In this document: piece by piece, positions 9,668 to 33,933 of the stretch
Layout of the letters: every line of letters starts with the position of its first letter
Numbering within the stretch: position 1 is the stretch's first letter
Notes under the pieces: generated by a model
The model's database searches: none
The model's input: only the letters and a program-made list of their open reading frames with translations
Told to the model about the DNA's origin: nothing
Made by a program: the position numbers and the translations under genes
Assembly: GCF_001677475.2 (NCBI RefSeq)
Contig: NZ_CP015229.1
Source of the DNA: Escherichia coli
Lineage (GTDB): Bacteria > Pseudomonadota > Gammaproteobacteria > Enterobacterales > Enterobacteriaceae
Direction: 5' to 3' (one strand)
Length of the DNA stretch: 64,000 nt

Positions 9668-11032
9668 TTGATTACACATATTAGCCCGCTTGGCTCCATG
9701 GATATGTTGTCGCAGCTGGAAGTGGATATGCTTAAACGCACCGCCAGCAGCGACCTCTATCAACTGTTTCGCAACTGTTCACTTGCCGTACTGAACTCCG
9801 GTAGTTTGACCGATAACAGCAAAGAATTGCTGTCTCGTTTTGAAAATTTCGATATTAACGTCCTGCGCCGTGAACGCGGCGTAAAGCTGGAACTGATTAA
9901 TCCCCCGGAAGAGGCTTTTGTCGATGGGCGAATTATTCGCGCTTTGCAGGCCAACTTGTTCGCGGTTCTGCGTGACATTCTCTTCGTTTACGGGCAAATC
10001 CATAACACCGTTCGTTTTCCCAATCTGAATCTCGACAACTCCGTCCACATCACTAACCTGGTCTTTTCCATCTTGCGTAACGCTCGCGCACTGCATGTCG
10101 GTGAAGCGCCAAATATGGTGGTCTGCTGGGGTGGTCACTCAATTAACGAAAACGAGTATTTGTATGCCCGTCGCGTCGGGAATCAGCTGGGCCTGCGTGA
10201 GCTGAATATCTGCACCGGCTGTGGTCCGGGAGCGATGGAAGCGCCGATGAAAGGTGCTGCGGTCGGACACGCGCAGCAGCGTTACAAAGACAGTCGTTTT
10301 ATTGGTATGACAGAGCCGTCGATTATCGCCGCTGAACCGCCTAACCCGCTGGTCAACGAATTGATCATCATGCCGGATATCGAAAAACGTCTGGAAGCGT
10401 TTGTGCGTATCGCTCACGGTATCATTATCTTCCCTGGCGGTGTGGGTACGGCAGAAGAGTTGCTGTATTTGCTGGGAATTTTAATGAACCCGGCCAACAA
10501 AGATCAGGTTTTACCATTGATCCTCACCGGCCCGAAAGAGAGCGCCGACTACTTCCGCGTACTGGACGAGTTTGTCGTGCATACGCTGGGTGAAAACGCG
10601 CGCCGCCATTACCGCATCATCATTGATGACGCCGCTGAAGTCGCTCGTCAGATGAAAAAATCGATGCCGCTGGTGAAAGAAAATCGCCGCGACACTGGTG
10701 ACGCTTACAGCTTTAACTGGTCAATGCGCATTGCGCCAGATTTGCAAATGCCGTTTGAGCCGTCTCACGAGAACATGGCTAATCTGAAGCTTTACCCGGA
10801 TCAACCTGTTGAAGTGCTGGCTGCCGATCTGCGCCGTGCGTTCTCCGGTATTGTGGCGGGTAACGTAAAAGAAGTCGGTATTCGCGCCATTGAAGAGTTT
10901 GGTCCTTACAAAATCAACGGCGATAAAGAGATTATGCGTCGTATGGACGACCTGCTACAGGGTTTTGTTGCCCAGCATCGTATGAAGTTGCCAGGCTCAG
11001 CCTACATCCCTTGCTACGAAATCTGCACGTAA
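9668..11032 (+). CDS. ppnN: Nucleotide 5'-monophosphate nucleosidase (LOG-family), 454 aa; TTG start
   Basis: ORF 9668..11032 begins with TTG preceded by aaggag RBS; LOG-family PGGxGTxEE motif ([13 protein letters not shown]). Confidence 0.88.
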
Positions 11033-11041
11033 TCTCCCTCC

Positions 11042-11075
11042 CCCGGTGACGTTTGTTGCCGGGTTTTCTCGTTTT
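11042..11075 (+). terminator. Putative terminator downstream of ppnN
   Basis: cccgg..ccggg hairpin followed by ttttctcgttttt. Confidence 0.45.
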
Positions 11076-11587
11076 TGGTCACATACCCATCAATTTATTT
11101 CATTTGTTATATGAATGTTTCTTACCACCATCACGCGATAAATATCATTACAGTTAATATGTCATACAATTTATGTTGTAACGCAAACGTTTTCCTATTT
11201 TCATAAACCACATTTTATCGCTATGAAAAAGAAATTATCGCCATGATTAACTAAAAGTATTGATTTTTTCAGTTCAACCTACATATATTGCGCGCCCCGG
11301 AAGAAGTCAGATGTCGTTTAATGGGCAAATATTGCCCTTAAATTCTCTTTTACTTTTGATTTACAGAGTAAAGCGTTGGGATAATCTATCTTCCAAGTAG
11401 ATTATTGTATTTGGGATCAAGATCACTGATAGATACATAACTTGTGTGTATCTTTCCGCCCTCAAATTATTACGGCGGTAAATGATTAAGCCATCGCCGA
11501 TAGACAGATTTCATTTTTACGGTCAGGCACCTTCCCGGGCTGAACTGGCTAAAAGCTGAATTATTTGCATTCCTCCAGGAGAAATAG

Positions 11588-12877
11588 ATGGAAACGACTC
11601 AAACCAGCACGATTGCGTCGAAAGACTCTCGTAGTGCCTGGCGCAAGACAGACACCATGTGGATGCTGGGCCTTTACGGCACGGCAATCGGCGCGGGCGT
11701 GCTGTTCCTGCCAATCAACGCCGGTGTTGGCGGTATGATCCCGCTGATCATCATGGCTATCCTTGCGTTCCCGATGACATTTTTTGCACACCGCGGCCTG
11801 ACTCGCTTCGTACTGTCTGGTAAAAACCCAGGCGAAGACATCACCGAGGTTGTAGAAGAACACTTTGGTATTGGCGCAGGTAAACTGATTACCCTGCTCT
11901 ACTTCTTCGCTATCTACCCGATCCTGCTGGTTTATAGCGTGGCAATCACCAATACAGTTGAAAGCTTCATGTCTCACCAGCTGGGTATGACACCACCGCC
12001 GCGTGCGATTCTGTCGCTGATCCTGATCGTGGGTATGATGACCATCGTTCGCTTCGGTGAGCAGATGATCGTTAAAGCGATGAGTATTCTGGTATTCCCG
12101 TTTGTTGGCGTACTGATGCTGCTGGCTCTGTACCTGATCCCGCAGTGGAACGGCGCAGCACTGGAAACGCTGTCTCTGGACACTGCATCGGCAACCGGAA
12201 ACGGTCTGTGGATGACCCTGTGGCTGGCAATTCCGGTAATGGTGTTCTCGTTCAACCACTCTCCGATCATCTCTTCTTTCGCTGTTGCGAAGCGTGAAGA
12301 GTACGGCGATATGGCAGAACAGAAATGCTCGAAGATCCTGGCATTCGCACACATCATGATGGTGCTGACCGTAATGTTCTTCGTCTTCAGCTGCGTACTG
12401 AGCCTGACTCCGGCAGACCTGGCTGCGGCTAAAGAGCAGAACATCTCGATTCTGTCTTACCTGGCTAACCACTTTAACGCACCGGTTATCGCGTGGATGG
12501 CTCCGATTATCGCGATTATCGCTATCACCAAATCCTTCCTCGGCCACTACCTGGGCGCACGTGAAGGCTTCAACGGTATGGTGATTAAATCTCTGCGTGG
12601 TAAAGGTAAGTCTATCGAAATCAACAAGCTGAACCGTATCACTGCGCTGTTCATGCTGGTAACGACCTGGATTGTTGCCACCCTGAACCCGAGCATCCTG
12701 GGTATGATTGAAACCTTGGGCGGCCCAATCATCGCGATGATCCTGTTCCTGATGCCGATGTACGCAATCCAGAAAGTACCGGCAATGCGTAAGTACAGCG
12801 GTCACATCAGCAACGTATTCGTTGTCGTGATGGGTCTGATTGCAATCTCCGCAATCTTCTACTCTCTGTTCAGCTAA
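11588..12877 (+). CDS. sdaC: Serine:H+ symporter, 429 aa
   Basis: ORF 11588..12877; multi-TM HAAAP-family transporter; RBS ccaggaga upstream. Confidence 0.93.
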
Positions 12878-12934
12878 GTCCTTTCGCGCCGCTTTCGGGC
12901 GGCGCTTCCTCCGTTTTAACGCGATGTATTTCCT

Positions 12935-14302
12935 ATGATTAGCGTATTCGATATTTTCAAAATCGGCATTGGCCCTTCCAGTTCTCATACCGTTGGACCA
13001 ATGAAAGCGGGTAAACAATTTACCGACGATCTGATTGCCCGTAACCTGCTTAAAGACGTGACCCGCGTGGTGGTTGATGTGTACGGCTCGCTCTCTCTGA
13101 CCGGTAAAGGCCACCACACTGATATCGCCATAATTATGGGTCTGGCGGGTAACCTGCCGGATACCGTGGATATCGATTCCATCCCTGGTTTTATTCAGGA
13201 TGTGAATACTCATGGTCGCCTGATGCTGGCAAACGGTCAGCATGAAGTGGAGTTCCCGGTTGATCAGTGCATGAACTTCCATGCCGACAACCTTTCTCTG
13301 CATGAAAACGGTATGCGCATTACCGCGCTGGCGGGCGATAAAGTCGTTTACAGCCAGACTTATTACTCTATCGGCGGTGGCTTTATTGTTGATGAAGAAC
13401 ATTTTGGTCAGCAGGATAGCGCACCGGTTGAAGTTCCTTATCCGTACAGTTCAGCAGCCGATCTGCAAAAACATTGTCAGGAAACCGGGCTGTCACTCTC
13501 TGGCCTGATGATGAAAAACGAGCTGGCGCTGCACAGCAAAGAAGAGCTGGAACAGCACCTGTCGAACGTCTGGGAAGTCATGCGTGGCGGTATTGAGCGC
13601 GGTATTTCTACCGAAGGCGTGTTGCCTGGCAAACTGCGCGTTCCGCGCCGTGCTGCGGCACTACGCCGGATGCTGGTCAGCCAGGATAAAACCACCACTG
13701 ACCCGATGGCGGTAGTTGACTGGATCAACATGTTTGCACTGGCAGTGAACGAAGAGAACGCTGCTGGCGGTCGCGTGGTGACTGCGCCGACTAACGGTGC
13801 GTGCGGGATTATCCCGGCTGTGCTGGCGTACTACGATAAGTTTATCCGCGAAGTGAACGCTAACTCTCTAGCTCGTTACCTGCTGGTAGCCAGCGCCATT
13901 GGTTCTCTTTATAAGATGAACGCGTCAATTTCTGGTGCCGAAGTGGGTTGCCAGGGTGAAGTTGGTGTGGCGTGCTCTATGGCGGCAGCTGGTCTGGCAG
14001 AACTGTTAGGCGCAAGCCCGGCGCAGGTGTGCATCGCAGCGGAGATCGCCATGGAGCACAACCTCGGTCTGACGTGTGACCCGGTCGCGGGGCAGGTTCA
14101 AGTGCCATGCATCGAGCGTAACGCCATTGCGGCAGTGAAAGCGGTGAATGCTGCACGTATGGCGCTGCGCCGTACCAGCGAGCCGCGCGTCTGCCTCGAT
14201 AAAGTTATCGAAACCATGTACGAAACAGGTAAAGATATGAACGCCAAGTACCGCGAAACCTCTCGCGGCGGCCTGGCAATGAAGATCGTTGCCTGCGATT
14301 AA
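12935..14302 (+). CDS. sdaB: L-serine deaminase II (Fe-S L-serine dehydratase), 455 aa
   Basis: ORF 12935..14302; N-terminus MISVFDIFKIGIGPSSSHTVGPM typical of Fe-S serine dehydratases. Confidence 0.93.
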   Translation: MISVFDIFKIGIGPSSSHTVGPMKAGKQFTDDLIARNLLKDVTRVVVDVYGSLSLTGKGHHTDIAIIMGLAGNLPDTVDIDSIPGFIQDVNTHGRLMLANGQHEVEFPVDQCMNFHADNLSLHENGMRITALAGDKVVYSQTYYSIGGGFIVDEEHFGQQDSAPVEVPYPYSSAADLQKHCQETGLSLSGLMMKNELALHSKEELEQHLSNVWEVMRGGIERGISTEGVLPGKLRVPRRAAALRRMLVSQDKTTTDPMAVVDWINMFALAVNEENAAGGRVVTAPTNGACGIIPAVLAYYDKFIREVNANSLARYLLVASAIGSLYKMNASISGAEVGCQGEVGVACSMAAAGLAELLGASPAQVCIAAEIAMEHNLGLTCDPVAGQVQVPCIERNAIAAVKAVNAARMALRRTSEPRVCLDKVIETMYETGKDMNAKYRETSRGGLAMKIVACD

Positions 14303-15169
<867 letters not shown>

Positions 15170-15171
15170 CG

Positions 15172-15206
15172 GCGTGCCGGATACGGCGCAAACGTCGTAT
15201 CCGGCA
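15172..15206. repeat. REP-like palindromic unit between xni and fucO
   Basis: gccggatacggcgcaaacgtcgtatccggc. Confidence 0.65.
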
Positions 15207-15223
15207 TTATCACATCAGCGCAT

Positions 15224-16372
15224 TTACCAGGCTGTATGGTAAAGCTCTACAATATCCTCAAGCGTTGCTTCACGCGGGTTGCCACCGGTACAAACATCAT
15301 CCAGTGCCGCCTGCGCCAGTGCCGGAATATCTTCCTTGCGTACACCAACATCACGCAAATGTGGCGGAATACCGACATCACGGTTGAGAGCAAACACCGC
15401 TTCAACAGCGGCATTACGCGCCTCTTCCAGGCTCATACCTTCCACTTTCACGCCCATAACGCGCGCGATATCGCGGTACTTCTCACCGGTAAAGTCAGCG
15501 TTATAGCGCATGACATGCGGTAGCAGGATGGCGTTTGCAACACCGTGTGGAGTGTTATAAAACGCGCCCAATGGATGCGCCATACCATGCACCAACCCTA
15601 ACCCAACATTCGAGAAGCCCATACCCGCAACATACTGCCCGAGCGCCATTTCTTCTCCGGCATCCTTATCACCAGCAACCGATCCTCGCAGCGCCCCAGC
15701 AATGATTTCAATCGCTTTAATGTGCAGCGCATCGGTTAGCGCCCACGCGCCACGGGTAATATACCCCTCAATAGCATGAGTGAGCGCATCGACACCCGTC
15801 GCGGCTTTCAGCGCTGGAGGCATACCATCCATCATGTCAGCGTCAATAAACGCCACCTGCGGGATATCATGCGGATCAACGCAAACAAACTTGCGCCGTT
15901 TCTCTTCGTCAGTGATCACGTAGTTAATGGTCACTTCTGCCGCAGTGCCTGCTGTGGTGGGGATTGCCAGAATCGGTACACTGGGTTTATTGGTCGGGGA
16001 AAGCCCTTCCAGGCTACGCACATCGGCAAACTCCGGGTTGTTGCTGATAATGCCAATCGCTTTACAAGTATCCTGTGGAGAACCACCACCAATAGCGATC
16101 AGGTAATCCGCGCCGCTATTCTGGAATACACCGAGCCCTTCTTTGACGACAGTAATTGTTGGGTTGGGCACTACGCCGTCGTAAATCGCCCATGCCAGCC
16201 CTTCAGCATCCATCTTATCGGTCACTTTCGCCACCACGCCGCATTGCACCAGCGTTTTATCGGTGACGATCAGCGCCTTCTGATAACCACGGCGTTTCAC
16301 CTCATCGGTTAAAGCCCCAACAGCACCCCGACCAAACCATGCCGTTTCGTTCAGAATCATTCTGTTAGCCAT
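15224..16372 (-). CDS. fucO: L-1,2-propanediol oxidoreductase (lactaldehyde reductase), 382 aa
   Basis: ORF 15224..16375; iron-containing alcohol dehydrogenase family; start taken at second Met (MANRMILNE). Confidence 0.93.
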   Translation of the reverse strand: MANRMILNETAWFGRGAVGALTDEVKRRGYQKALIVTDKTLVQCGVVAKVTDKMDAEGLAWAIYDGVVPNPTITVVKEGLGVFQNSGADYLIAIGGGSPQDTCKAIGIISNNPEFADVRSLEGLSPTNKPSVPILAIPTTAGTAAEVTINYVITDEEKRRKFVCVDPHDIPQVAFIDADMMDGMPPALKAATGVDALTHAIEGYITRGAWALTDALHIKAIEIIAGALRGSVAGDKDAGEEMALGQYVAGMGFSNVGLGLVHGMAHPLGAFYNTPHGVANAILLPHVMRYNADFTGEKYRDIARVMGVKVEGMSLEEARNAAVEAVFALNRDVGIPPHLRDVGVRKEDIPALAQAALDDVCTGGNPREATLEDIVELYHTAW

Positions 16373-16399
16373 CATCCTTCTCCTTGTTGCTTTACGAAA

Positions 16400-17047
16400 T
16401 TACTCTTCAATCCGTAACCCATAGGTTTTGAATTTCTCCAGCACTACGGCAATCTCTTCATCGCTCAGCACTGGCACCGGGTCCGTAATCGCCAGGGTCG
16501 TCAGGTAAAGTTGCGCCAGCACTTCAACTTCATGCGCCAGCCATAACGCTTTTTCCAGATTAACCTCACAAGCGATAAGCCCATGATGTTGTAACAAAGT
16601 TGCCTTACGATTTTTGAGAGCCAGCGCAACATGTTCAGAAAGTTCGCGTGTTCCAAAGGTCGCATAAGGCGCGCAAGGAATAGAATTACCGCCAGCCGCC
16701 GCAATCATGTAGTGAATAGCGGGGATCGGTCGGTTAAGAATGGAAACTGCCGTGCAATGAACGGCATGATTGTGAACAACCGCGTTGGCATCTGGTCTGC
16801 TTTGATAGGCCGCCATATGGAAACGCCACTCGCTTGAGGGGAGCTTTCCTTCCTCATGTTTACCGTTGCCATCAATAAAGACAATATGCGACTCCGTCAG
16901 TTTTTCATATGGAATGCCTGTAGGCGTAATCAGCATCCCATCCTGATAACGTACACTGACGTTACCCGCTGTCCCCTGGTTCAGTCCCAGGCGGGTCATT
17001 TCCAGGCAAGTGTCAATAATCTGACGAGCAAGTTTATTTCGTTCCAT
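16400..17047 (-). CDS. fucA: L-fuculose-1-phosphate aldolase, 215 aa
   Basis: ORF 16400..17047; class II aldolase; upstream of fucO in same orientation. Confidence 0.93.
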   Translation of the reverse strand: MERNKLARQIIDTCLEMTRLGLNQGTAGNVSVRYQDGMLITPTGIPYEKLTESHIVFIDGNGKHEEGKLPSSEWRFHMAAYQSRPDANAVVHNHAVHCTAVSILNRPIPAIHYMIAAAGGNSIPCAPYATFGTRELSEHVALALKNRKATLLQHHGLIACEVNLEKALWLAHEVEVLAQLYLTTLAITDPVPVLSDEEIAVVLEKFKTYGLRIEE

Positions 17048-17593
17048 TAGCTACCTCTCTCTGATTCAAAACAGGGCAATAATGTTGTTCCTTTCACACT
17101 ATTGAATTAGCCGTTTAATTACCCACCATCTTCTTCCTGATTAACAAGAAAGAAATTTACAAGCTTATATTTTGTGACCTGGTTCAACTAATCACAGTAA
17201 ATAACTGCAAGTTCTCTTTTTATAACCCAATTAAAAATGACCGCTCTTAAAAATATTTATCAAAACGGTCATTTTTCTATTCACCCAAGCCAGGAATGCC
17301 CGTTTTCGGCATAAACAATTAATACGGTCATCGGGTTTGTGTTTTTTATGATTTATTTTCTGAAACGGGCATGAAATTTCGATTATTAAAGTGATGGTAG
17401 TCACATAAAGTCACCTCCCAGCTAATAAGTGTGACCGCCGTCATATTACAGAGCGTTTTTTATTTGAAAATGAATCCATGAGTTCATTTCTGACAGGCAA
17501 ATATTCACTGATATGAAGCCCGAACTCGCTGGTTTTGCACTTTTGAAAACATAACCGATTACGTGCTTAAGCTTCTGAACCTAAGAGGATGCT
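17048..17593. promoter_or_regulatory. Divergent fucAO / fucPIKUR control region (FucR- and CRP-dependent promoters expected)
   Basis: 546-bp AT-rich non-coding spacer between divergent fucA and fucP; individual binding sites not resolved. Confidence 0.6.
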
Positions 17594-18910
17594 ATGGGAA
17601 ACACATCAATACAAACGCAGAGTTACCGTGCGGTAGATAAAGATGCAGGGCAAAGCAGAAGTTACATTATTCCATTCGCGCTGCTGTGCTCACTGTTTTT
17701 TCTTTGGGCGGTAGCCAATAACCTTAACGACATTTTATTACCTCAATTCCAGCAGGCTTTTACGCTGACAAATTTCCAGGCTGGCCTGATCCAATCGGCC
17801 TTTTACTTTGGTTATTTCATTATCCCAATCCCTGCCGGGATATTGATGAAAAAACTCAGTTATAAAGCAGGGATTATTACCGGATTATTTTTATATGCCT
17901 TGGGCGCTGCATTATTCTGGCCCGCTGCAGAAATAATGAACTACACCTTATTTTTAGTTGGCCTATTTATTATTGCAGCCGGATTAGGTTGTCTGGAAAC
18001 TGCCGCAAACCCTTTTGTTACGGTATTAGGGCCGGAAAGCAGTGGTCACTTCCGCTTAAATCTTGCGCAAACATTTAACTCGTTTGGCGCAATTATCGCG
18101 GTTGTCTTTGGACAAAGTCTTATTTTGTCTAACGTGCCACATCAATCGCAAGACGTTCTCGATAAAATGTCTCCAGAGCAATTGAGTGCGTATAAACACA
18201 GCCTGGTATTATCGGTACAGACACCTTATATGATCATCGTGGCTATCGTGTTACTGGTCGCCCTGCTGATCATGCTGACGAAATTCCCAGCATTGCAGAG
18301 TGATAATCACAGTGACGCCAAACAAGGATCGTTCTCCGCATCGCTTTCTCGCCTGGCGCGTATTCGTCACTGGCGCTGGGCGGTATTAGCGCAATTCTGC
18401 TATGTCGGCGCACAAACGGCCTGCTGGAGCTATTTGATTCGCTACGCTGTAGAAGAAATTCCAGGTATGACTGCAGGCTTTGCCGCTAACTATTTAACCG
18501 GAACCATGGTGTGCTTCTTTATTGGTCGTTTCACCGGTACCTGGCTCATCAGTCGCTTCGCACCACACAAAGTCCTGGCCGCCTACGCATTAATCGCTAT
18601 GGCACTGTGCCTGATCTCAGCCTTCGCTGGCGGTCATGTGGGCTTAATAGCCCTGACTTTATGCAGCGCCTTTATGTCGATTCAGTACCCAACAATCTTC
18701 TCGCTGGGCATTAAGAATCTCGGCCAGGACACCAAATACGGTTCGTCCTTCATCGTTATGACCATCATTGGCGGCGGTATTGTCACTCCGGTCATGGGTT
18801 TTGTCAGTGACGCGGCGGGCAACATCCCCACTGCTGAACTGATCCCCGCACTCTGCTTCGCGGTCATCTTTATCTTTGCCCGTTTCCGTTCTCAAACGGC
18901 AACTAACTGA
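17594..18910 (+). CDS. fucP: L-fucose:H+ symporter, 438 aa
   Basis: ORF 17594..18910; MFS transporter; RBS aagagga upstream. Confidence 0.93.
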   Translation: MGNTSIQTQSYRAVDKDAGQSRSYIIPFALLCSLFFLWAVANNLNDILLPQFQQAFTLTNFQAGLIQSAFYFGYFIIPIPAGILMKKLSYKAGIITGLFLYALGAALFWPAAEIMNYTLFLVGLFIIAAGLGCLETAANPFVTVLGPESSGHFRLNLAQTFNSFGAIIAVVFGQSLILSNVPHQSQDVLDKMSPEQLSAYKHSLVLSVQTPYMIIVAIVLLVALLIMLTKFPALQSDNHSDAKQGSFSASLSRLARIRHWRWAVLAQFCYVGAQTACWSYLIRYAVEEIPGMTAGFAANYLTGTMVCFFIGRFTGTWLISRFAPHKVLAAYALIAMALCLISAFAGGHVGLIALTLCSAFMSIQYPTIFSLGIKNLGQDTKYGSSFIVMTIIGGGIVTPVMGFVSDAAGNIPTAELIPALCFAVIFIFARFRSQTATN

Positions 18911-18942
18911 ACATATTTTCCGAATAAAGTGAGGAATCTGTA

Positions 18943-20718: not shown

Positions 20719-20730
20719 TACATTACTCCC

Positions 20731-20826: not shown

Positions 20827-22245
20827 ATGAAACAAGAAGTTATCCTGGTACTCGACTGTGGCGCGACCAATGTCAGGGCCATCGCGGTTAATCGGCAGGG
20901 AAAAATTGTTGCCCGCGCCTCAACGCCTAATGCCAGCGATATCGCGATGGAAAACAACACCTGGCACCAGTGGTCTTTAGACGCCATTTTGCAACGCTTT
21001 GCTGATTGCTGTCGGCAAATCAATAGTGAACTGACTGATTGCCACATCCGCGGTATCGCCGTCACCACCTTTGGTGTGGATGGCGCTCTGGTAGATAAGC
21101 AAGGCAATCTGCTCTATCCGATCATTAGCTGGAAATGTCCGCGAACAGCAGCGGTAATGGACAATATTGAACGGTTGATCTCCGCACAGCAGTTGCAGAC
21201 TATTTCTGGTGTCGGAGCCTTTAGTTTCAATACGTTATATAAATTGGTGTGGTTGAAAGAAAATTATCCACAACTGCTGGAACGCGCGCACGCCTGGCTC
21301 TTTATTTCGTCGCTGATTAACCACCGTTTAACCGGCGAATTCACTACTGATATCACGATGGCCGGAACCAGCCAGATGCTGGATATCCAGCAACGCGATT
21401 TCAGTCCGCAAATTTTACACGCCACCGGTATTCCACGCCGACTCTTCCCTCGTCTGGTGGAAGCGGGTGAACAGATTGGTACGTTACAGAACAGCGCCGC
21501 AGCAATGCTCGGCTTACCCGTTGGCATACCGGTGATTTCCGCAGGTCACGATACCCAGTTCGCCCTTTTTGGCGCTGGTGCCGAACAAAATGAACCCGTG
21601 CTCTCTTCCGGTACATGGGAAATTTTAATGGTCCGTAGCGCCCAGGTTGATACTTCGCTGTTAAGTCAGTACGCCGGTTCTACCTGCGAGCTGGATAGCC
21701 AGGCAGGGTTGTATAACCCAGGTATGCAATGGCTGGCATCCGGCGTGCTGGAATGGGTGAGAAAACTGTTCTGGACGGCTGAAACTCCCTGGCAAATATT
21801 GATTGAAGAAGCTCGCCTGATCGCGCCTGGCGCAGATGGAGTGAAAATGCAGTGTGATTTATTGTCGTGCCAGAACGCTGGCTGGCAAGGAGTGACGCTT
21901 AATACCACGCGGGGGCATTTCTATCGCGCGGCGCTGGAAGGGTTAACCACGCAATTACAGCGCAATCTACAGATGCTGGAAAAAATCGGGCACTTTAAAG
22001 CCTCTGAATTATTGTTAGTCGGCGGAGGAAGTCGCAACACATTGTGGAATCAGATTAAAGCCAATATGCTTGATATTCCGGTAAAAGTTCTCGACGATGC
22101 CGAAACGACCGTCGCAGGAGCTGCGCTGTTCGGTTGGTATGGCGTAGGGGAATTTAACAGCCCGGAAGAAGCCCGCGCGCAGATTCATTATCAGTACCGT
22201 TATTTCTACCCGCAAACTGAACCTGAATTTATAGAGGAAGTGTGA
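20827..22245 (+). CDS. fucK: L-fuculokinase, 472 aa
   Basis: ORF 20797..22245; FGGY sugar kinase; start placed at ATG 20827 after gcaggag RBS (longer ORF start 20797 also possible). Confidence 0.9.
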
Positions 22246-22246
22246 A

Positions 22247-22660
22247 ATGCTGAAAACAATTTCGCCGTTAATTTCTCCCGAACTATTGAAAGTGCTGGCA
22301 GAGATGGGGCATGGAGATGAAATTATTTTTTCCGATGCTCACTTTCCCGCCCATTCGATGGGACCGCAGGTGATCCGCGCTGATGGCCTGTTGGTGAGCG
22401 ACTTGCTCCAGGCGATTATCCCGTTATTTGAGCTGGACAGTTATGCACCACCGCTGGTGATGATGGCGGCGGTAGAAGGTGACACTCTCGATCCTGAAGT
22501 AGAACGACGTTATCGTAATGCGCTTTCACTACAAGCCCCCTGTCCTGACATCATCCGCATCAATCGTTTTGCGTTTTATGAACGGGCGCAAAAAGCCTTT
22601 GCGATCGTTATCACAGGCGAACGAGCGAAGTACGGGAATATTCTTTTAAAAAAGGGGTAA
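22247..22660 (+). CDS. fucU: L-fucose mutarotase (RbsD/FucU family), 137 aa as encoded here
   Basis: ORF 22247..22660; matches FucU; ends ...ILLKKG* at an A6 tract, 3 codons short of the 140-aa form I recall. Confidence 0.88.
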
Positions 22661-22725: not shown

Positions 22726-23457
22726 ATGAAAGCGGCACGCCAGCAAGCGATAGTCGACCTGCTGCTGAACCATACCAGCCTGACCACGGAAGCTCTCTCT
22801 GAACAGCTAAAGGTCAGTAAAGAAACCATTCGTCGCGATCTCAATGAATTACAGACGCAGGGTAAAATTCTGCGCAATCATGGGCGCGCTAAATATATCC
22901 ACCGTCAAAATCAAGACAGTGGCGATCCCTTTCACATCCGGCTGAAAAGCCATTATGCGCATAAAGCAGATATCGCGCGCGAGGCGCTCGCGTGGATTGA
23001 AGAAGGGATGGTAATAGCCTTAGACGCAAGTTCAACCTGCTGGTATCTGGCACGCCAGTTGCCTGACATCAACATCCAGGTCTTCACCAATAGCCATCCG
23101 ATTTGCCATGAACTCGGTAAACGCGAACGCATTCAACTGATCAGTTCCGGCGGCACACTTGAGCGCAAATATGGTTGTTACGTCAATCCCTCTCTGATTT
23201 CCCAGCTTAAATCGCTGGAAATCGATCTGTTTATTTTTTCTTGTGAAGGGATCGATAGCAGCGGCGCACTGTGGGACTCCAATGCGATCAACGCTGATTA
23301 CAAATCAATGCTATTAAAACGTGCCGCGCAATCGTTGTTATTGATTGATAAAAGTAAATTTAATCGTTCAGGGGAAGCCCGCATCGGGCATCTGGATGAG
23401 GTCACGCACATTATTTCTGATGAGCGCCAGGTTGCGGCTTCTTTGGTAACAGCCTGA
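22726..23457 (+). CDS. fucR: L-fucose operon activator (DeoR family), 243 aa
   Basis: ORF 22717..23457; DeoR-type HTH N-terminus; start at MKAARQQ (22726). Confidence 0.9.
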   Translation: MKAARQQAIVDLLLNHTSLTTEALSEQLKVSKETIRRDLNELQTQGKILRNHGRAKYIHRQNQDSGDPFHIRLKSHYAHKADIAREALAWIEEGMVIALDASSTCWYLARQLPDINIQVFTNSHPICHELGKRERIQLISSGGTLERKYGCYVNPSLISQLKSLEIDLFIFSCEGIDSSGALWDSNAINADYKSMLLKRAAQSLLLIDKSKFNRSGEARIGHLDEVTHIISDERQVAASLVTA

Positions 23458-24601: not shown

Positions 24602-24989
24602 GACTTACGCCCTTGCGCTTTAAACGGATAGCACCAACTAACATTAACGCCCAGCCCGCAAGGAAGCTCACGCCGCCAACCGGAGTGACAAACGCCCACA
24701 AACGCAGATGGGACAGTGCCAGGCAATAAAGGCTGCCGCTGAACAGCACCGTGCCTAACGCGAGGAAAACGCTACTCCAGTAAAACCAGATACTGATGCG
24801 ACGCTGCATTGCCACCGCCAGACCTAAGATCGCCAGCGTATGAAACGCCTGGTATTCGAGACCGGTCTGGATCCAGCCCATCTCAACGGCCCCCATGGTT
24901 TTACTTAACACATGCGCGCCAAAAGCGCCCAGTGCCACAAAAATGAAGCCGCTAATGGCGGCGAAAATCAGCATAAAACGGCTGGTCAT
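24594..24989 (-). CDS. ygdD: DUF423 inner-membrane protein, 131 aa
   Basis: ORF 24594..24989; four hydrophobic segments; 8-nt overlap with rlmM start. Confidence 0.85.
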
Positions 24990-25007
24990 GGTCGTACCCT
25001 ACGTAAA

Positions 25008-25925
25008 TTATTGTTCATAACGAAAGCGGAATTTTTCTTGTTCAGCAGCGGCTTTCGCCAGGATCCATTGACGAAAGGCGGCTATTTTACCCAGTTCTGC
25101 CTGGCTGTCATGACAAACCAGATAAAAAGCGTTTTTACTGACCAGAACATCATTAAACGGGCAAACAAGACGTCCGGCCTCGATTTCAGATTGCGCCATC
25201 ACGTTATTTGCCAGCGCCACTCCCTGCCCGTGGATAGCCGCTTGCAGCACCATGGCGCTATGGCTAAAAATTGGCCCTTGCTGAACGTTGATATGATTTA
25301 ACCCCAATTGGCGAGTATATGTCTGCCAGTCACGGCGTGACGCATCATGTAATAACGTATGTTTAGCCAGATCTTCCGGGGTCTTCAAGGGTTTTTCGCC
25401 AGTCAGCAGTAGCGGCGAACACACCGGCAATAAATATTCGGCGTACAGTTTTTCCACCCGTAGCCCCGGCCAGTTGCCCCGACCATAAAATATCGCCACA
25501 TCAACATCATCCGCCAGCTTATCTTCCTGACGATCAACCGCCTGGATTCGAACGTCAATTCCCGGATAAGCTGAATTAAAGCTGGAAAGTCGCGGAACCA
25601 ACCAATGAATGGCGAAACTGGGGAGTAAACTGACCGTCAACGCCCCCTTGGCGCTACGGGCCTGGAGTTTACGCGTCGCTTCGGTTAATTGCGAAAATAT
25701 CTCTTTGATATCGAGGAAATAGCTTTGACCTTCCTCGGTCAGCAGGAGTGAACGATTACGGCGGCGGAACAGTTTTAGCCCCAGAAAATCCTCAAGAGAC
25801 TTGATTTGATGACTTACTGCGGCCTGGGTCACAAAAAGCTCTTCTGCTGCGCGAGTGAAACTTAAATGGCGTGCTGCGGCATCAAAAACTCGTAAGGCAT
25901 TTAGCGGTGGTAATCGTTTAGACAT
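25008..25925 (-). CDS. gcvA: LysR-family glycine-cleavage transcriptional regulator, 305 aa
   Basis: ORF 25008..25925; LysR HTH (LSFTRAAEELFVTQAAVSHQI); divergent from gcvB. Confidence 0.93.
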   Translation of the reverse strand: MSKRLPPLNALRVFDAAARHLSFTRAAEELFVTQAAVSHQIKSLEDFLGLKLFRRRNRSLLLTEEGQSYFLDIKEIFSQLTEATRKLQARSAKGALTVSLLPSFAIHWLVPRLSSFNSAYPGIDVRIQAVDRQEDKLADDVDVAIFYGRGNWPGLRVEKLYAEYLLPVCSPLLLTGEKPLKTPEDLAKHTLLHDASRRDWQTYTRQLGLNHINVQQGPIFSHSAMVLQAAIHGQGVALANNVMAQSEIEAGRLVCPFNDVLVSKNAFYLVCHDSQAELGKIAAFRQWILAKAAAEQEKFRFRYEQ

Positions 25926-26053
25926 GGCTTTTAAACTTTGATGTTAAATGAATTTAACAATTAGATCACACTGTGTAACCTATTAGTTTTTTTAATCTGA
26001 GCCATTATAAATTGTCCGTTGAGCTTCTACCAGCAAATACCTATAGTGGCGGC

Positions 26054-26259
26054 ACTTCCTGAGCCGGAACGAAAAGTTTTATCGGAATGCGTGTTCTGGT
26101 GAACTTTTGGCTTACGGTTGTGATGTTGTGTTGTTGTGTTTGCAATTGGTCTGCGATTCAGACCATGGTAGCAAAGCTACCTTTTTTCACTTCCTGTACA
26201 TTTACCCTGTCTGTCCATAGTGATTAATGTAGCACCGCCTAATTGCGGTGCTTTTTTTT
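26054..26259 (+). ncRNA. gcvB: GcvB small RNA, about 206 nt
   Basis: ACTTCCTGAGCCGGAACGAAAAGTTTTATCGG 5' end, G/U-rich tgttgtgttgttgtgtttg region, terminal hairpin gcaccgcc-taatt-gcggtgc plus T8. Confidence 0.9.
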
Positions 26260-26275
26260 ACCTTGCGATCGCGAA

Positions 26276-26503
26276 TTACTGATCCAGTTCGACCATCTCT
26301 TTCACGTCGGTACGGTTGATCTGCTGTTTGTTGCCATTAGCGTCTTTATACGAAATCATACCGGTATCGTTATCAGTCTGTGGTTTGCCGTCAGAGACGA
26401 TGGTACGTCCGTCATTGGTGTGCATCACATAGTTCGAACCGGAACAGGCGCTCAGGGCAAAAGTCAGCATACAGGCAGAAATAATTGCGGCAGTCTTTTT
26501 CAT
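26276..26503 (-). CDS. ygdI: Small lipoprotein (DUF903), 75 aa
   Basis: ORF 26276..26506; lipobox LSAC; paralog of YgdR in this window. Confidence 0.88.
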
Positions 26504-26694
26504 CATCTTCTCCTTAAAGCGATTAATAAATCTTAATAGTATTGATTAACAGGCTAAAATTAACGCCTAACACTATTCAGCATATGTTACTGACGCGGCT
26601 TCGCCAGGATATCCAGATAATTCTGATGGTTAGCACCCTCCTTGTATCAAAGTGAATTTTGCGTCACGATCGGTGCATCAAGCCGAGGAGTACC

Positions 26695-27900
26695 ATGAAC
26701 GTTTTTAATCCCGCGCAGTTTCGCGCCCAGTTTCCCGCGCTACAGGATGCGGGCGTCTATCTCGACAGCGCCGCGACCGCGCTTAAACCTGAAGCCGTGG
26801 TTGAAGCCACCCGACAGTTTTATAGCCTGAGCGCCGGAAACGTCCATCGCAGCCAGTTTGCCGAAGCCCAACGCCTGACCGCGCGTTATGAAGCTGCGCG
26901 GGAAAAAGTGGCACAATTACTGAATGCATCAGATGACAAAAATATCGTCTGGACGCGCGGCACCACTGAATCCATCAACATGGTGGCACAATGCTATGCG
27001 CGTCCGCGTCTGCAACCGGGCGATGAGATTATTGTCAGCGTGGCAGAACACCACGCCAACCTCGTCCCCTGGCTGATGGTCGCCCAACAAACCGGAGCCA
27101 AAGTGGTGAAGTTGCCGCTTAATGCGCAGCGTCTGCCAGATGTCGATTTGTTACCAGAGCTGATTACTCCCCGTAGCCGGATTCTGGCGTTGGGCCAGAT
27201 GTCGAACGTCACTGGCGGCTGCCCGGATCTGGCGCGAGCGATTACCTTTGCCCATTCAGCCGGGATGGTGGTGATGGTTGATGGTGCTCAGGGGGCAGTG
27301 CATTTCCCCGCGGATGTTCAGCAACTGGATATTGATTTCTATGCTTTTTCAGGTCACAAACTGTATGGCCCGACAGGGATAGGCGTGCTGTATGGCAAAT
27401 CAGAACTGCTGGAAGCGATGTCGCCCTGGCTGGGCGGCGGCAAAATGGTTCACGAAGTGAGTTTTGACGGCTTCACTACTCAATCTGCGCCGTGGAAACT
27501 GGAAGCTGGAACGCCAAATGTCGCTGGTGTCATAGGATTAAGCGCGGCGCTGGAATGGCTGGCAGATTACGATATCAACCAGGCCGAAAGCTGGAGCCGT
27601 AGCTTAGCAACGCTGGCGGAAGATGCGCTGGCGAAACGTCCCGGCTTTCGTTCATTCCGCTGCCAGGATTCCAGCCTGCTGGCCTTTGATTTTGCTGGCG
27701 TTCATCACAGCGATATGGTGACGCTGCTGGCGGAGTACGGTATTGCCCTGCGGGCCGGGCAGCATTGCGCTCAGCCGCTACTGGCAGAATTAGGCGTAAC
27801 CGGCACACTGCGCGCCTCTTTTGCGCCATATAATACAAAGAGTGATGTGGATGCGCTGGTGAATGCCGTTGACCGCGCGCTGGAATTATTGGTGGATTAA
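26695..27900 (+). CDS. csdA: Cysteine sulfinate desulfinase / cysteine desulfurase (class V aminotransferase), 401 aa
   Basis: ORF 26659..27900 (TTG); start set at ATG 26695 after gaggag RBS; PLP-binding SGHK motif. Confidence 0.92.
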
Positions 27901-28343
27901 TGACGAACCCGCAATTCGCCGGACATCCGTTCGGCACAACCGTAACCGCAGAAACGTTACGCAATACCTTCGCACCGTTGACGCAATGGGAAGATAAATA
28001 TCGCCAGTTGATCATGCTGGGGAAACAGCTTCCGGCTTTGCCAGACGAGTTAAAAGCGCAGGCTAAAGAGATTGCCGGATGCGAAAACCGCGTCTGGCTG
28101 GGATATACCGTGGCTGAAAACGGTAAAATGCACTTCTTTGGCGACAGCGAAGGGCGCATTGTGCGCGGCCTGCTGGCGGTGTTGTTGACTGCCGTTGAGG
28201 GGAAAACCGCCACCGAGTTGCAGGCACAGTCACCGCTGGCATTGTTTGATGAGCTGGGATTACGTGCGCAACTTAGCGCCTCACGCAGCCAGGGGTTGAA
28301 TGCGTTAAGCGAGGCGATTATCGCTGCGGCGAAGCAGGTTTAA
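27900..28343 (+). CDS. csdE: Sulfur acceptor protein CsdE (SufE-like), 147 aa
   Basis: ORF 27900..28343; ATGA overlap with csdA stop. Confidence 0.92.
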
Positions 28344-28351
28344 GCACAGAA

Positions 28352-28388
28352 CCGGGTCGGATAAGACGTTTGCGTCGCATCCGACCTG
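28352..28388. repeat. REP-like palindromic unit between csdE and tcdA
   Basis: ggtcggataagacgtttgcgtcgcatccgacc. Confidence 0.6.
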
Positions 28389-28393
28389 ATTGT

Positions 28394-29200
28394 TTACCCC
28401 TGACGCGCCGCTTTCGCCATCATCTTCTTCAGCGCATGAGAAACCGCAACAAAACCAAAGGTGGCGGTCACCATCGTCGCGGCACCAAAGCCAGATGCAC
28501 AATCCATCCGCTTTGGCCCTTCTGCCGTGGCTTTCATCGCACACACCGTACCGTCTGACTGCGGATACACCAATGCTTCGGTAGAGAACACGCAATCCAC
28601 ACCGAGCTTACCTTTACTGTTTTTCACTACGCCAAAATCGCTTTTCAGGCGCTCGCGCAACTTCGCCGCCAACGGGTCCTGAATCGTTTTCGCCAGATCG
28701 GTAACCTGAATCTGCGTCGGGTCAATCTGCCCACCAGCGCCACCAGTCGTGACCAGCGGGATTTTATTGCGCCGACAATAAGCAATCAGCGCCGCTTTGG
28801 GCCGTACACTATCAATAGCATCAATCACGTACGAATAACCGGCATTCATATATTGCGCTACGTTATCCGGCGTCACGAAGTCATCCACCACCGTTACACG
28901 GCACTCCGGGTTAATCTGGCGAATACGCTCCGCCATTACTTCCGCTTTTGCCAGCCCGACGTTATCGCGCAGAGCGTGAATTTGCCGATTGGTATTGGTG
29001 ACGCACACATCATCCATATCGATAAGCGTGATTGCGCCAATCCCCGTGCGCGCTAGCGCTTCCGCCGCCCAGGAACCGACACCGCCAATACCCACCACAC
29101 AAATATGCGCGTCAGCAAACAGTTGCAATGCTTTTTCACCATACAGACGCGCTGTGCCACCAAAACGCTGACGCCATGCATCACTAATTACCACAGACAT
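28394..29200 (-). CDS. tcdA: tRNA threonylcarbamoyladenosine dehydratase (ThiF/MoeB E1-like), 268 aa
   Basis: ORF 28394..29200; GxGxxG nucleotide-binding motif (VVGIGGVGSWAAEALAR). Confidence 0.9.
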   Translation of the reverse strand: MSVVISDAWRQRFGGTARLYGEKALQLFADAHICVVGIGGVGSWAAEALARTGIGAITLIDMDDVCVTNTNRQIHALRDNVGLAKAEVMAERIRQINPECRVTVVDDFVTPDNVAQYMNAGYSYVIDAIDSVRPKAALIAYCRRNKIPLVTTGGAGGQIDPTQIQVTDLAKTIQDPLAAKLRERLKSDFGVVKNSKGKLGVDCVFSTEALVYPQSDGTVCAMKATAEGPKRMDCASGFGAATMVTATFGFVAVSHALKKMMAKAARQG

Positions 29201-29253
29201 AGCACCTCAGAATTAAAAAGGGCGAGGTTATCCCTCACCCTAAACGCATAAAT

Positions 29254-29360
29254 GCCTGATGCGCTACGCTTATCAGGCCTACATAACTCCTGCAATATTT
29301 TGGATTTGCATGAGTTGTAGGCCGGATAAGGCGTTCACGCCGCATCCGGCATGAACCACG
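29254..29360. repeat. BIME: two REP units in opposite orientation
   Basis: gcctgatgcgctacgcttatcaggcctac (29254..29282) and gtaggccggataaggcgttcacgccgcatccggca (29326..29360). Confidence 0.8.
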
Positions 29361-29438
29361 CGCACTTAGTCAATAATCAGGATGAGAGGTTATCCCTCAC
29401 CCTGTCGTATCCGTCAAAACGGTATACAGAATATCACA

Positions 29439-30536
29439 TCAGCCGCTAAAGACGTTACCTGCGCCCGGGGCGGTTTTCAGCACCCAGACACGTCCATAGT
29501 GGTTGTACCAACCTGCGCGGTGTCCGGCTTCCGGCCCGATCCCTTGATAGATATCGAAGTGTTGGCCTTTGATTGCGCCACCGACATCCAGCGCCACCAT
29601 CAGACGCAATTCGTACTGACCGTTAAATTTGCCGTTATTATCCAGCAGCGGCACTTCTGCCAGCAAGGTAGTACCTGGCGGAATAATTGAACGATCAGAG
29701 GCAACAGAAGCACGGCCAACCAGCGGCACCGCACTTGCCCCTTTCACCGGTGCAAAAGATTGCGGTTTAAAGAAGACGAAAGACGGGTTCTGTTCAAGCA
29801 GCTCGCGAACCTCGGCTTCACTGTGTGTTTCGCCCCAGTGACGAATCGCCTGCATCGACATATCTTCTTTTTTCACTTCGCCACGGTCGATCAGCACCTT
29901 ACCAATGCTGCGATAGGCATGACCGTTTTTCCCTGCATAGCTGAAAAAGTTAAGCGGACTGCCATCACCAAAGTCGATATACCCGCTACCCTGCACATCC
30001 ATAATGAAGTTATCCATCAGGGAGTTACTGTAAGCGAGAATATATTTATCACTCAGCGCTCCTGCGTAGATCTCCGCACGAGACGGCAGACGACCACGTT
30101 TTTGCGGCATACGGTAAATCGGATACTGGAACTCGCCCTGGCGGGTATGGCGTGCCTGAATTACCGGCGTGTAATAGCCTGTAAACTGCACGTTACCATA
30201 GTTGTCGGCACCTTCCATCTGCCAGGCATCAATGCCGAACTGGCGCATATTGCGGGTATCACCGCCTGCGCGCAGCCACTCTTGCACCGCGTTATAAACA
30301 TTACTCTGGTTGCCATACAGACGCGGTGACGAATTACGGATATGGTTAATTTGCTCGGCAAAATCACCGGCGTTAATCGGCGCGCCAACGGCATCTGGCT
30401 GGTTCACCAGAGAGAAAGGCTGGGTAAATTTCCCGTCTTTATATTGCTGTCCGCGATCGGTTGGTTTGGAAGAGCAGGCGGCAAGCATTGCCACAACCGT
30501 GCCCATAAGAAGGTACTTTACCCAACGTCCTTTCAT
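29439..30536 (-). CDS. mltA: Membrane-bound lytic murein transglycosylase A (lipoprotein), 365 aa
   Basis: Track ORF 29439..30818 is over-extended through the tRNA genes; true start at Met 30536 (MKGRWVKYLLMGTVVAMLAACSS lipobox). Confidence 0.92.
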   Translation of the reverse strand: MKGRWVKYLLMGTVVAMLAACSSKPTDRGQQYKDGKFTQPFSLVNQPDAVGAPINAGDFAEQINHIRNSSPRLYGNQSNVYNAVQEWLRAGGDTRNMRQFGIDAWQMEGADNYGNVQFTGYYTPVIQARHTRQGEFQYPIYRMPQKRGRLPSRAEIYAGALSDKYILAYSNSLMDNFIMDVQGSGYIDFGDGSPLNFFSYAGKNGHAYRSIGKVLIDRGEVKKEDMSMQAIRHWGETHSEAEVRELLEQNPSFVFFKPQSFAPVKGASAVPLVGRASVASDRSIIPPGTTLLAEVPLLDNNGKFNGQYELRLMVALDVGGAIKGQHFDIYQGIGPEAGHRAGWYNHYGRVWVLKTAPGAGNVFSG

Positions 30537-30703
30537 TGTTCTCTTCTTCAGGTTAAAAAATAAGGCGCAACGAAGATAACAAACCGCCGCGTTTAATGAA
30601 ATGAGCAGCCTCTCCCTGACGCAAATTTTGCACAAAAAATAGGCTTTAGTGATTTGTTTTTGTTCAAAATCATGCCAAATCCGTGATCGGGGTAAAAAAA
30701 AGG

Positions 30704-30731
30704 TTGCATGAAAACGCGAGCGGAGTATAGT
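30704..30731 (+). promoter_or_regulatory. Putative sigma70 promoter of the tRNA-fMet operon
   Basis: TTGCAT -N16- TATAGT, 13 nt upstream of first tRNA 5' end. Confidence 0.6.
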
Positions 30732-30744
30732 GCGCATCCACGGA

Positions 30745-30821
<77 letters not shown>

Positions 30822-30854
30822 ATTAAAATTTGATGAAGTAAAGCAGTACGGTGA

Positions 30855-30931
<77 letters not shown>

Positions 30932-30965
30932 ATCAAAATTTGATGAAGTAAAAGCAGTACGGTGA

Positions 30966-31042
<77 letters not shown>

Positions 31043-31050
31043 ATTATTGA

Positions 31051-31073
31051 ACACCCTGACGGGTGTTTTTTTG
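31051..31073 (+). terminator. Rho-independent terminator of the tRNA-fMet operon
   Basis: acaccc-tgac-gggtgt followed by ttttttt. Confidence 0.8.
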
Positions 31074-31116
31074 TTTCTGCTCTCCCATAAAAAAGGCGCC
31101 ATTCAGCGCCTTTTTA

Positions 31117-32370
31117 TCATCCCCTTCTCGCCAGCGTCGCCCCATCGGCAAAATACGCTTTAATCCCCGCAAGAATAGACTCCGCAACTTCCTGCTGGAA
31201 AGTCGCCGTTTTCAGTTTACGCTCTTCCTCAACGTTACTGATAAACGCCGTTTCGACCAGAATGGAGGGAATATCTGGTGCCTTTAGTACGGCAAACCCG
31301 GCCTGTTCAACCTGATTTTTATGCAGCTTGTTGATTTTACCGAGCTTATTCAGCACCGCTTTACCAAACTTAAGGCTGTCGGCAATGGTCAGCGACTGCA
31401 CCATATCGAACATGGTGTGGTCGACATAGCGGTCACCGCTTTTGCTCACGCCACCAATCAAGTCCGAGGCGTTCTGGGTCTGTGCCAGATATTTTGCCGC
31501 AGTACTGGTTGCGCCTTTGGTTGAGAGCGCAAACACTGAGGAACCGCTCGGCTGGCGACTGGTAAAGGCGTCTGCATGGATAGAGACAAACAGGTCGGCA
31601 CGCTGTTTCTGGGCTTTTGCTACGCGCACTTGCAACGGAATGAAGATGTCTTCATTGCGCGTCATGTACACCTTCATATTGCCCTCTTTCTCGATCAGAG
31701 AGCGCAAACGGCGAGCTATTTGCAATACCACGTCTTTTTCGCGCGTTTTGTATTTCCCCACCGCACCGGAGTCTTCGCCGCCGTGGCCAGGGTCAAGCAT
31801 AATAACAATCGGACGATCGCGCCCTGCTTTACCCGGTTGTGGACCACTTTGTGCTGGCGGCACCTGCTTTTCGAGGTCGCCTTTGTTGTAATCCTCCAGC
31901 AGCGCCAGCAGCGGGTCCTGCATATCCTGTGCATTGGCCGGATAGAGGTCCATCACCAGACGCTCTTTAAACCCGGCGACCGGCGCAAGGGCAAACAGCT
32001 GCGGTTTTACGTTTTGCTTTAATTCAAAAACCATGCGTACGGTCTGCGGGTCAAATTGCCCGACGCGCGCCGACTTGATGAACGGGTCGTCTGCACGAAT
32101 TTGTGCCGCCATCCCCTTGAGTACCGAGTTCAGGTTTACATCTTCGATATCCACCACCACGCGTTCCGGGTTACTCAACGCGAACTGCTTATATTTCAGC
32201 TGACGATTTGATTCTACCGTCACGCGGGTGTAGCTGGACGCAGGCCAGACGCGCACCGCCACGACCTGGCTAACCGCAGCCAGGCTGACCTGACTTACGC
32301 TCAATAGCCACATGGCACCCGCGCCTTGCAGTAAACGACGACGGCTGATTGCAGTGTTGGATCCTGACAT
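31117..32370 (-). CDS. amiC: N-acetylmuramoyl-L-alanine amidase AmiC (Tat-exported), 417 aa
   Basis: ORF 31117..32460; start at Met 32370 giving Tat signal [15 protein letters not shown]; amidase_3 domain. Confidence 0.92.
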
Positions 32371-32552
32371 GCCTCTCCCGAGCAAAAGAAATCTAAGCTG
32401 TGTAACAAGTAAACGACTAATTTGACCGGAAACTTTAGCGAAAGACGCATAATCTGTCATCTAATAAACGGTAAACATTCTTTTTATATTCACGGCATTA
32501 CTGATAAAAAAGTCGCTCTCGCATAAAATTTACACTTGCACCCTGCGAAAAA

Positions 32553-32588
32553 ACAGAATAAAAATACACTAATTTCGAATAATCATGC
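32553..32588. promoter_or_regulatory. Tandem ARG boxes (ArgR operator) at the argA promoter
   Basis: acagaataaaaatacact + aatttcgaataatcatgc, each close to the TGAAT-w4-ATTCA consensus, just upstream of the argA RBS. Confidence 0.7.
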
Positions 32589-32601
32589 AAAGAGGTGTGC
32601 C

Positions 32602-33933
32602 GTGGTAAAGGAACGTAAAACCGAACTGGTCGAGGGATTCCGCCATTCGGTTCCCTATATCAATACCCACCGGGGAAAAACGTTTGTCATCATGCTCGGC
32701 GGTGAAGCCATTGAGCATGAGAATTTCTCCAGTATCGTTAATGATATCGGGTTGCTGCACAGCCTCGGCATCCGTCTGGTGGTGGTCTATGGCGCACGTC
32801 CGCAGATCGACGCAAATCTGGCCGCGCATCACCACGAACCGCTGTATCACAAGAATATACGTGTGACCGACGCCAAAACACTGGAACTGGTGAAGCAGGC
32901 TGCGGGAACATTGCAACTGGATATTACTGCTCGCCTGTCGATGAGTCTCAATAACACGCCGCTGCAGGGCGCGCATATCAACGTCGTCAGTGGCAATTTT
33001 ATTATTGCCCAGCCGCTGGGCGTCGATGACGGCGTGGATTACTGCCATAGCGGGCGTATCCGGCGGATTGATGAAGACGCGATCCATCGTCAACTGGACA
33101 ACGGTGCAATAGTGCTAATGGGGCCGGTCGCTGTTTCAGTCACTGGCGAGAGCTTTAATCTGACCTCGGAAGAGATTGCCACTCAACTGGCCATCAAACT
33201 GAAAGCTGAAAAGATGATTGGTTTTTGCTCTTCCCAGGGCGTCACTAATGACGACGGTGATATTGTCTCCGAACTTTTCCCTAACGAAGCGCAAGCACGG
33301 GTAGAAGCCCAGGAAGAGAAAGGCGATTACAACTCCGGTACGGTGCGCTTTTTGCGTGGCGCAGTGAAAGCCTGCCGCAGCGGCGTGCGTCGCTGTCATT
33401 TAATCAGTTATCAGGAAGATGGCTCGCTGTTGCAAGAGTTGTTCTCACGCGACGGTATCGGTACGCAGATTGTGATGGAAAGCGCCGAGCAGATTCGTCG
33501 CGCAACAATCAACGATATTGGCGGTATTCTGGAGTTGATTCGCCCGCTGGAGCAGCAAGGTATTCTGGTGCGCCGTTCTCGCGAGCAGCTGGAGATGGAA
33601 ATCGACAAATTCACCATTATTCAGCGCGATAACACGACTATTGCCTGCGCCGCGCTCTATCCGTTCCCGGAAGAGAAGATTGGGGAAATGGCCTGTGTGG
33701 CAGTTCACCCGGATTACCGCAGTTCATCACGGGGCGAGGTTCTGCTGGAACGCATTGCCGCTCAGGCGAAGCAGAGCGGCTTAAGCAAATTATTTGTGCT
33801 GACCACGCGCAGTATTCACTGGTTCCAGGAACGTGGATTTACCCCAGTGGATATTGATTTACTGCCCGAGAGCAAAAAGCAGTTGTACAACTACCAGCGT
33901 AAATCCAAAGTGTTGATGGCGGATTTGGGGTAA
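32602..33933 (+). CDS. argA: N-acetylglutamate synthase, 443 aa; GTG start
   Basis: ORF 32536..33933; start at GTG 32602 after agagg RBS giving [13 protein letters not shown]; kinase-like + GNAT domains. Confidence 0.92.

Follow-up and report, generated by a model that had tools for sequence, protein, structure and literature searches.

Three genes of Escherichia coli, ppnN, xni and argA, lie within a 64,000-nucleotide (nt) stretch of contig NZ_CP015229.1 (RefSeq assembly GCF_001677475.2), hereafter the window, and are in all likelihood conventional Shine–Dalgarno-led genes translated from the non-ATG codons TTG 9668, GTG 14414 and GTG 32602, a reading to which we give a probability of roughly 0.86. 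Coordinates refer to the window throughout, and features lie on the plus strand unless marked (−). The three starts are already present in the reference annotation and the literature, and are in this sense correct but ordinary; judged from the comparative evidence, their annotation appears well founded.

Over at least 80% of its length, the part of the window considered here (9000–33900) finds a match in 5,012 complete E. coli genomes, and the window is collinear with K-12 MG1655 between 2.915 and 2.98 Mb. The highest identity, only 98.5% over 25 kb, suggests that the source strain is absent from this RefSeq set and might be a Shigella or belong to an uncommon lineage. The K-12 counterparts of the three genes, ppnN/ygdH (b2795, TTG), xni/ygdG (b2798, GTG) and argA (b2818, GTG), have the same start codons as the window, with identical sequence over the 20 nt upstream of ppnN and xni and with products of 454, 251 and 443 amino acids, and the same codons are annotated in both the RefSeq record of MG1655 and the PGAP-annotated strain M00057. 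Relative to MG1655, the window, which comes from another strain, carries two amino-acid substitutions in Xni and a small number of synonymous differences close to the argA start codon. To compare alternative starts, every in-frame ATG, GTG, TTG, CTG, ATT, ATC and ATA between the upstream stop codon and +60 nt was scored for pairing with the 3′ end of 16S ribosomal RNA (rRNA). For every gene scored, the annotated codon was the in-frame candidate with the strongest Shine–Dalgarno pairing at a proper distance (ppnN, −8.8 kcal/mol; xni, −11.9; argA, −7.1; fucK, −6.6; fucR, −6.1; csdA, −8.4; syd, −5.0), the paired end lying at −6, −4 and −5 relative to the ppnN, xni and argA starts, respectively.

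Relatives of the three genes were gathered in different ways. For ppnN, a scan with each species represented by one genome yielded 80 Enterobacteriaceae loci, at 90–100% protein identity, to which one locus from Pectobacterium and one from Erwinia were added; xni was present in 66 of these ppnN-bearing loci; and a degenerate DNA pattern for the peptide FRHSVPYI recovered 120 metagenome loci for argA, about 103–105 of them with a usable argA 5′ end. Across these alignments (82 ppnN, 66 xni and 103 argA loci), the start codon, or the position just after it, is where coding-like third-position variation and amino-acid conservation set in, and the columns upstream are unconstrained except for the Shine–Dalgarno sequence. 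The positions of the three starts, their Shine–Dalgarno matches, their conservation and this coding signature are direct observations. When relatives carry either GTG or ATG at a single fixed position and the sequence before it is unconstrained, that position bears the classical comparative hallmark of a start codon. Such an interchange is seen for xni and argA and is absent for ppnN, for which the call rests on other criteria, since its TTG does not alternate with ATG among relatives. None of the three resembles the autoregulated rare start of infC (AUU, discriminated by initiation factor 3): all are TTG or GTG, the standard alternatives, and the only ATT candidate, at +12 of ppnN, is not conserved, so that no infC-type non-NUG start (AUU, AUC or CUG) was found.

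The ppnN coding sequence (9668–11032, 454 amino acids) opens with TTG at 9668–9670, as annotated in K-12 and M00057, 6 nt after an AAGGAG Shine–Dalgarno sequence at 9656–9661; the original prediction had named this same TTG and called its ribosome-binding site a good one, and both points hold. Between this TTG and an in-frame TGA at 9638–9640 there is no other canonical start. Among the relatives, which span Enterobacteriaceae, Pectobacteriaceae and Erwiniaceae, the start codon is TTG in 82 of 82 genomes and always follows AAGGAG; every one of the 82 has an in-frame stop within 30 codons upstream, and 81 lack any further canonical start before the TTG. Codons 7–10 differ among relatives only in their third positions. 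Residues 5–16 of PpnN are recognisably conserved both in PDB 4NPA, the Vibrio cholerae homologue, and among representatives at 45–55% identity, and translation therefore starts at or before codon 5. The predicted fold around the start does not differ from that of shuffled sequence (z = 0.56), so no unusual structure masks it. A search of the literature for the ygdH start codon returned only a deletion list, a sigma-S chromatin immunoprecipitation table and a list of Rsm targets in Pseudomonas putida, none of which concerns the TTG.

For xni, the GTG at 14414–14416 (coding sequence 14414–15169, 251 amino acids), annotated in K-12 and M00057 and likewise proposed from the bare sequence, follows an AAGGGGG Shine–Dalgarno sequence at 14402–14408 that makes it the best in-frame candidate. 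Of the 66 loci, 54 carry GTG at the homologous codon and 7–8 carry ATG, and in three the GTG stands one codon later. Upstream columns are near-random (1.4–1.9 bits) apart from the Shine–Dalgarno sequence, and third-position periodicity begins at codon 2. A GUG start, a ribosome-binding site and a 251-amino-acid product have been described for this gene, also known as exo (PMC1919509), and the Xni protein that was crystallised has 251 amino acids and begins MAVHLL.

The reading frame of xni is nevertheless open further upstream, from TTG 14324 to 15169, and translation of this longest open reading frame would give a 281-amino-acid protein. The K-12 protein record stands at version 4 (NP_417278.4), which is consistent with a past revision. 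We consider such a start highly improbable. TTG 14324 sits in the loop of a strong hairpin (14312–14336; fold −24.2 kcal/mol, z = −5.2) directly after the sdaB stop codon, which is probably the sdaB terminator, although a terminator consensus scan missed it owing to its weak T-tail. The 30 additional codons show neither conservation nor codon periodicity, an in-frame stop lies within 30 codons upstream of the homologous start in 58 of 66 loci, the alternation of GTG and ATG marks 14414 as the start, and the active, crystallised enzyme is the 251-amino-acid form. Separately, the Pectobacterium and Erwinia loci carry an xni-like 5′–3′ exonuclease gene directly after ppnN (L204, 1743–1965, and L205, 1699–1965), without sdaC and sdaB between them.

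The argA coding sequence (32602–33933, 443 amino acids) begins with GTG at 32602–32604, again as in K-12 and M00057, preceded by the Shine–Dalgarno sequence AGAGGTG at 32591–32597 (AGAGG core at 32591–32595). In the metagenome loci the homologous position holds GTG 49 times and ATG 35 times; in relatives with less than about 89% identity, the start is shifted one codon downstream and is likewise GTG or ATG. With GTG and ATG exchanging freely at the argA and xni starts of relatives, the identity of these codons looks only weakly constrained. A study of argA gives GTG as its native initiation codon, which the authors replaced with ATG, and describes repression of argA transcription by ArgR and, citing Igarashi et al. 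2015, membership of argA in the polyamine modulon (PMC8674398).

The argA start had been predicted to sit just downstream of tandem ARG boxes, and that is where it was found. Box 1 (ACAGAATAAAAATACACT, 32553–32570) and box 2 (TTCGAATAATCATGCAAA, 32574–32591) differ from the consensus WNTGAATWWWWATTCANW at two and three positions, respectively. They are 18-bp imperfect palindromes exactly 3 bp apart, the second of which adjoins the Shine–Dalgarno sequence and ends 10 nt before the GTG. Taken singly, ARG-box matches are about as common in the window as chance predicts (10 observed for an expectation of 7), whereas two of them on one strand with precisely this spacing should arise by chance only about 0.0006 times. 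The metagenome loci retain the core cgaataa.cat.ca 5′ of argA, and the only consensus promoter match near the gene, at 32501–32529, lies upstream of the boxes. By their sequence and spacing, the boxes appear to form a canonical ArgR operator of the two-box, 3-bp architecture described previously (PMC6245113). As in operators such as carAB P2 (PMC6245113), consensus-like 18-mers stand 3 bp apart directly 5′ of an arginine-biosynthesis gene; in argA, unlike in those cases, box 2 abuts the Shine–Dalgarno sequence. These boxes also bear on the possibility that argA is translated as a 465-amino-acid protein from TTG 32536, from which the frame is open: the added segment would cross both of them. 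TTG 32536 moreover has no Shine–Dalgarno sequence (+1.6 kcal/mol), in 93 of 103 related loci a stop codon interrupts the frame within 30 codons upstream, and the alternation of GTG and ATG sits at 32602. We regard this longer form as scarcely credible.

Several observations weigh against the assignment of the three starts. No N-terminal peptide or start-codon footprint was found for PpnN, Xni or ArgA in the published datasets examined, and the TRAINSPOTTER N-terminomics table has no rows for b2795, b2798 or b2818 in the relevant b-number range (PMC13245402). Both the structures and the published work on argA relied on engineered constructs and so do not prove the native N-terminus. Finally, an INRI-seq study lists a putative new translation initiation site for b2795 (ygdH, that is, ppnN) in its Table S3, an ATT located in frame at +12 nt (Ile5, 9680–9682), with a peak of 188 counts per million in four of five replicates and an in vivo retapamulin profiling (Ribo-RET) value of 5.28, just above threshold (PMC9825163). 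In favour of the annotated starts, on the other hand, the same table lists no alternative site for any of xni, argA, fucK, fucR and csdA (PMC9825163). Initiation mapped to a codon other than the predicted one, the outcome that would contradict the original prediction, is thus touched on for ppnN only, and the ATT is judged unlikely to be the main start.

If ppnN were translated mainly or additionally from ATT 9680, its product would be four residues shorter, and the in-frame peak flagged by both methods speaks for such a site. We nonetheless consider it unlikely. The ATT has no Shine–Dalgarno sequence at a usable spacing (+0.6 kcal/mol), the AAGGAG being 18 nt away. In 15 of 82 relatives codon 5 encodes valine (GTT, GTA or GTC) and is not start-like, the V. 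cholerae homologue also has valine there, and the TTG is invariant even though the neighbouring 6-nt spacer varies. Nearby rows of the same table place new sites on non-ATG triplets at −8, −7 and +4 of gudP, fucI and tcdA, and Meydan et al. report “tailing peaks” no more than 10 nt away from true starts; for these reasons the ATT peak may plausibly be an offset footprint left by the initiation complex on the TTG, although at +12 it lies just beyond the tailing-peak range. Like the internal sites found by Ribo-RET and INRI-seq, such as Met26 of speA, ppnN has an in-frame peak 3′ of its annotated start, but this peak is only four codons downstream, its ATT is not conserved and lacks a Shine–Dalgarno sequence, and its in vivo signal is borderline. 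Most likely, the ATT peak is an offset footprint or a minor site, with TTG 9668 as the main start of ppnN.

We also asked how often non-ATG starts occur in this region, with gene starts placed by BLAST mapping of every K-12 coding start onto the window (52 starts). Non-ATG codons start 3 of 21 genes between 9668 and 32604 and 6 of 52 in the whole window; the further cases, each a GTG, are syd at 8640 (−), ygdB at 46516 (−) and rppH at 52338 (−). The syd start (8638–8640, −), placed by the K-12 mapping just outside the predicted range, is backed by an N-terminal peptide together with Ribo-RET and INRI evidence (PMC13245402). About 88% of E. coli starts are ATG (PMC9825163), and both the range and the window fit the resulting expectation of about 12% (binomial P(X ≥ k) = 0.5–0.6). 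Non-ATG starts are thus not enriched here, and their frequency is that of the genome background. One could still see in three such starts within 23 kb, in the same stretch as three initiator tRNA genes, a feature in its own right, namely a local enrichment with shared regulation. This is very improbable, both frequencies being in line with the genome-wide one and ppnN, xni and argA belonging to unrelated pathways and separate transcription units. The census also brought up fucO and ygdI, both with an extra ATG directly before the annotated one (...gatg ATG; 16372–16375 (−) and 26503 (−), respectively), a one-codon start ambiguity that the original prediction had not listed.

That prediction had, on the other hand, described the N-termini of fucK, fucR and csdA as uncertain by a few residues. 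Alternative starts for these genes do exist in the bare sequence, but published data largely resolve them, and the evidence favours the annotated ATGs throughout. For fucK, the annotated ATG (20827–20829) has the stronger Shine–Dalgarno pairing, as compared with −3.3 kcal/mol for the ATG 10 codons upstream (20797), which lies inside a −20.9 kcal/mol structure. Tables from tetracycline ribosome profiling, in which fucK is the only one of the genes of interest to appear, place it under “3. 2014”, with two starts 30 nt apart (PMC4909307); from the text of that paper, the label would mean reads only at the newer, shorter start. For csdA, the annotated ATG (26695–26697) is likewise better paired than the TTG 12 codons upstream (26659; −1.8 kcal/mol), and an N-terminal peptide maps to it, with Ribo-RET and INRI support (PMC13245402, Table S1). 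The fucK and csdA alternatives are thereby settled by published data. For fucR, Shine–Dalgarno spacing favours the annotated ATG (22726–22728) over a GTG three codons upstream (22717); fucR is annotated with an ATG start in some E. coli genomes and with a non-ATG start in others (PMC11445065), which matches this very ambiguity. In fucU (22247–22660), the product has 137 amino acids here versus 140 in K-12, ending in KKG* rather than KKGVTP*, because one A is missing from an A7 run at about 22650–22656; the difference could be genuine or could reflect a sequencing error in the homopolymer.

Initiation at the three codons in this strain would proceed along standard lines. A Shine–Dalgarno sequence 4–6 nt upstream of the GUG or UUG would pair with the 3′ end of 16S rRNA and so place the 30S subunit, and the initiator fMet-tRNA (anticodon CAU) would decode the GUG or UUG with a first-position mismatch; the protein would still begin with formyl-methionine, and initiation would be several-fold weaker than at AUG. 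In argA, arginine-repressed transcription through the tandem ArgR operator could thus be combined with a low level of translation set by the GTG. Initiator tRNA-fMet reads ATG, GTG and TTG start codons, and three tandem genes for it, metZWV (anticodon CAT), lie at 30745–30821, 30855–30931 and 30966–31042, as identified by Rfam tRNA matches and the K-12 annotation. Strain M00057, the best-matching E. coli, carries only two metZWV-type copies versus the three in the window. An Rfam scan of 7000–34000 at the gathering threshold returned only CsrB, GcvB, the three tRNAs and ES036, and no cis-regulatory RNA at the three 5′ regions. The ES036 (CssrF) small RNA match lies between tcdA and mltA at 29275–29317 (−), with 46.6 bits versus a gathering score of 37.6.

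Near-cognate starts may also serve to tune expression. A study of GTG starts such as those of lacI, cra and mlc reports expression rates reduced 8- to 12-fold relative to ATG (PMC11445065), and the starts described here resemble them in combining a near-cognate codon with a normal Shine–Dalgarno sequence and in being conserved across Enterobacteriaceae. By analogy with these genes, the starts of ppnN, xni and argA might play a comparable role. They differ from that model, however, in that xni and argA swap GTG and ATG freely among relatives, and only the TTG of ppnN looks fixed.

In ppnN, the AAGGAG and the codons TTG, ATT and ACA (9656–9679) are identical in 82–83 genomes from three Enterobacterales families. 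Among the four-fold-degenerate sites of the gene at which the amino acid is conserved, only 2 of 132 are invariant (mean entropy 1.30 bits, 83 sequences), one of them in codon 3. Neither an Rfam family nor an unusual structure accounts for this invariance. Purifying selection thus appears to act on the weak TTG and its surroundings, in contrast to the starts of xni and argA, at which GTG and ATG replace each other freely. It is possible, and we propose this tentatively, that the TTG is actively maintained and not merely tolerated, through selection for low or condition-dependent initiation of PpnN, a (p)ppGpp-regulated nucleosidase, and the second ribosome position 12 nt downstream seen by retapamulin profiling might be involved. 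Cloning, proteomics and expression modelling all use N-termini that correct start codons define, and for these genes the sequence is in accord with the reference annotation. Beyond this, the invariant TTG of ppnN offers a small lead on the translational tuning of a stringent-response enzyme, to be taken as a modest lead rather than a finding.

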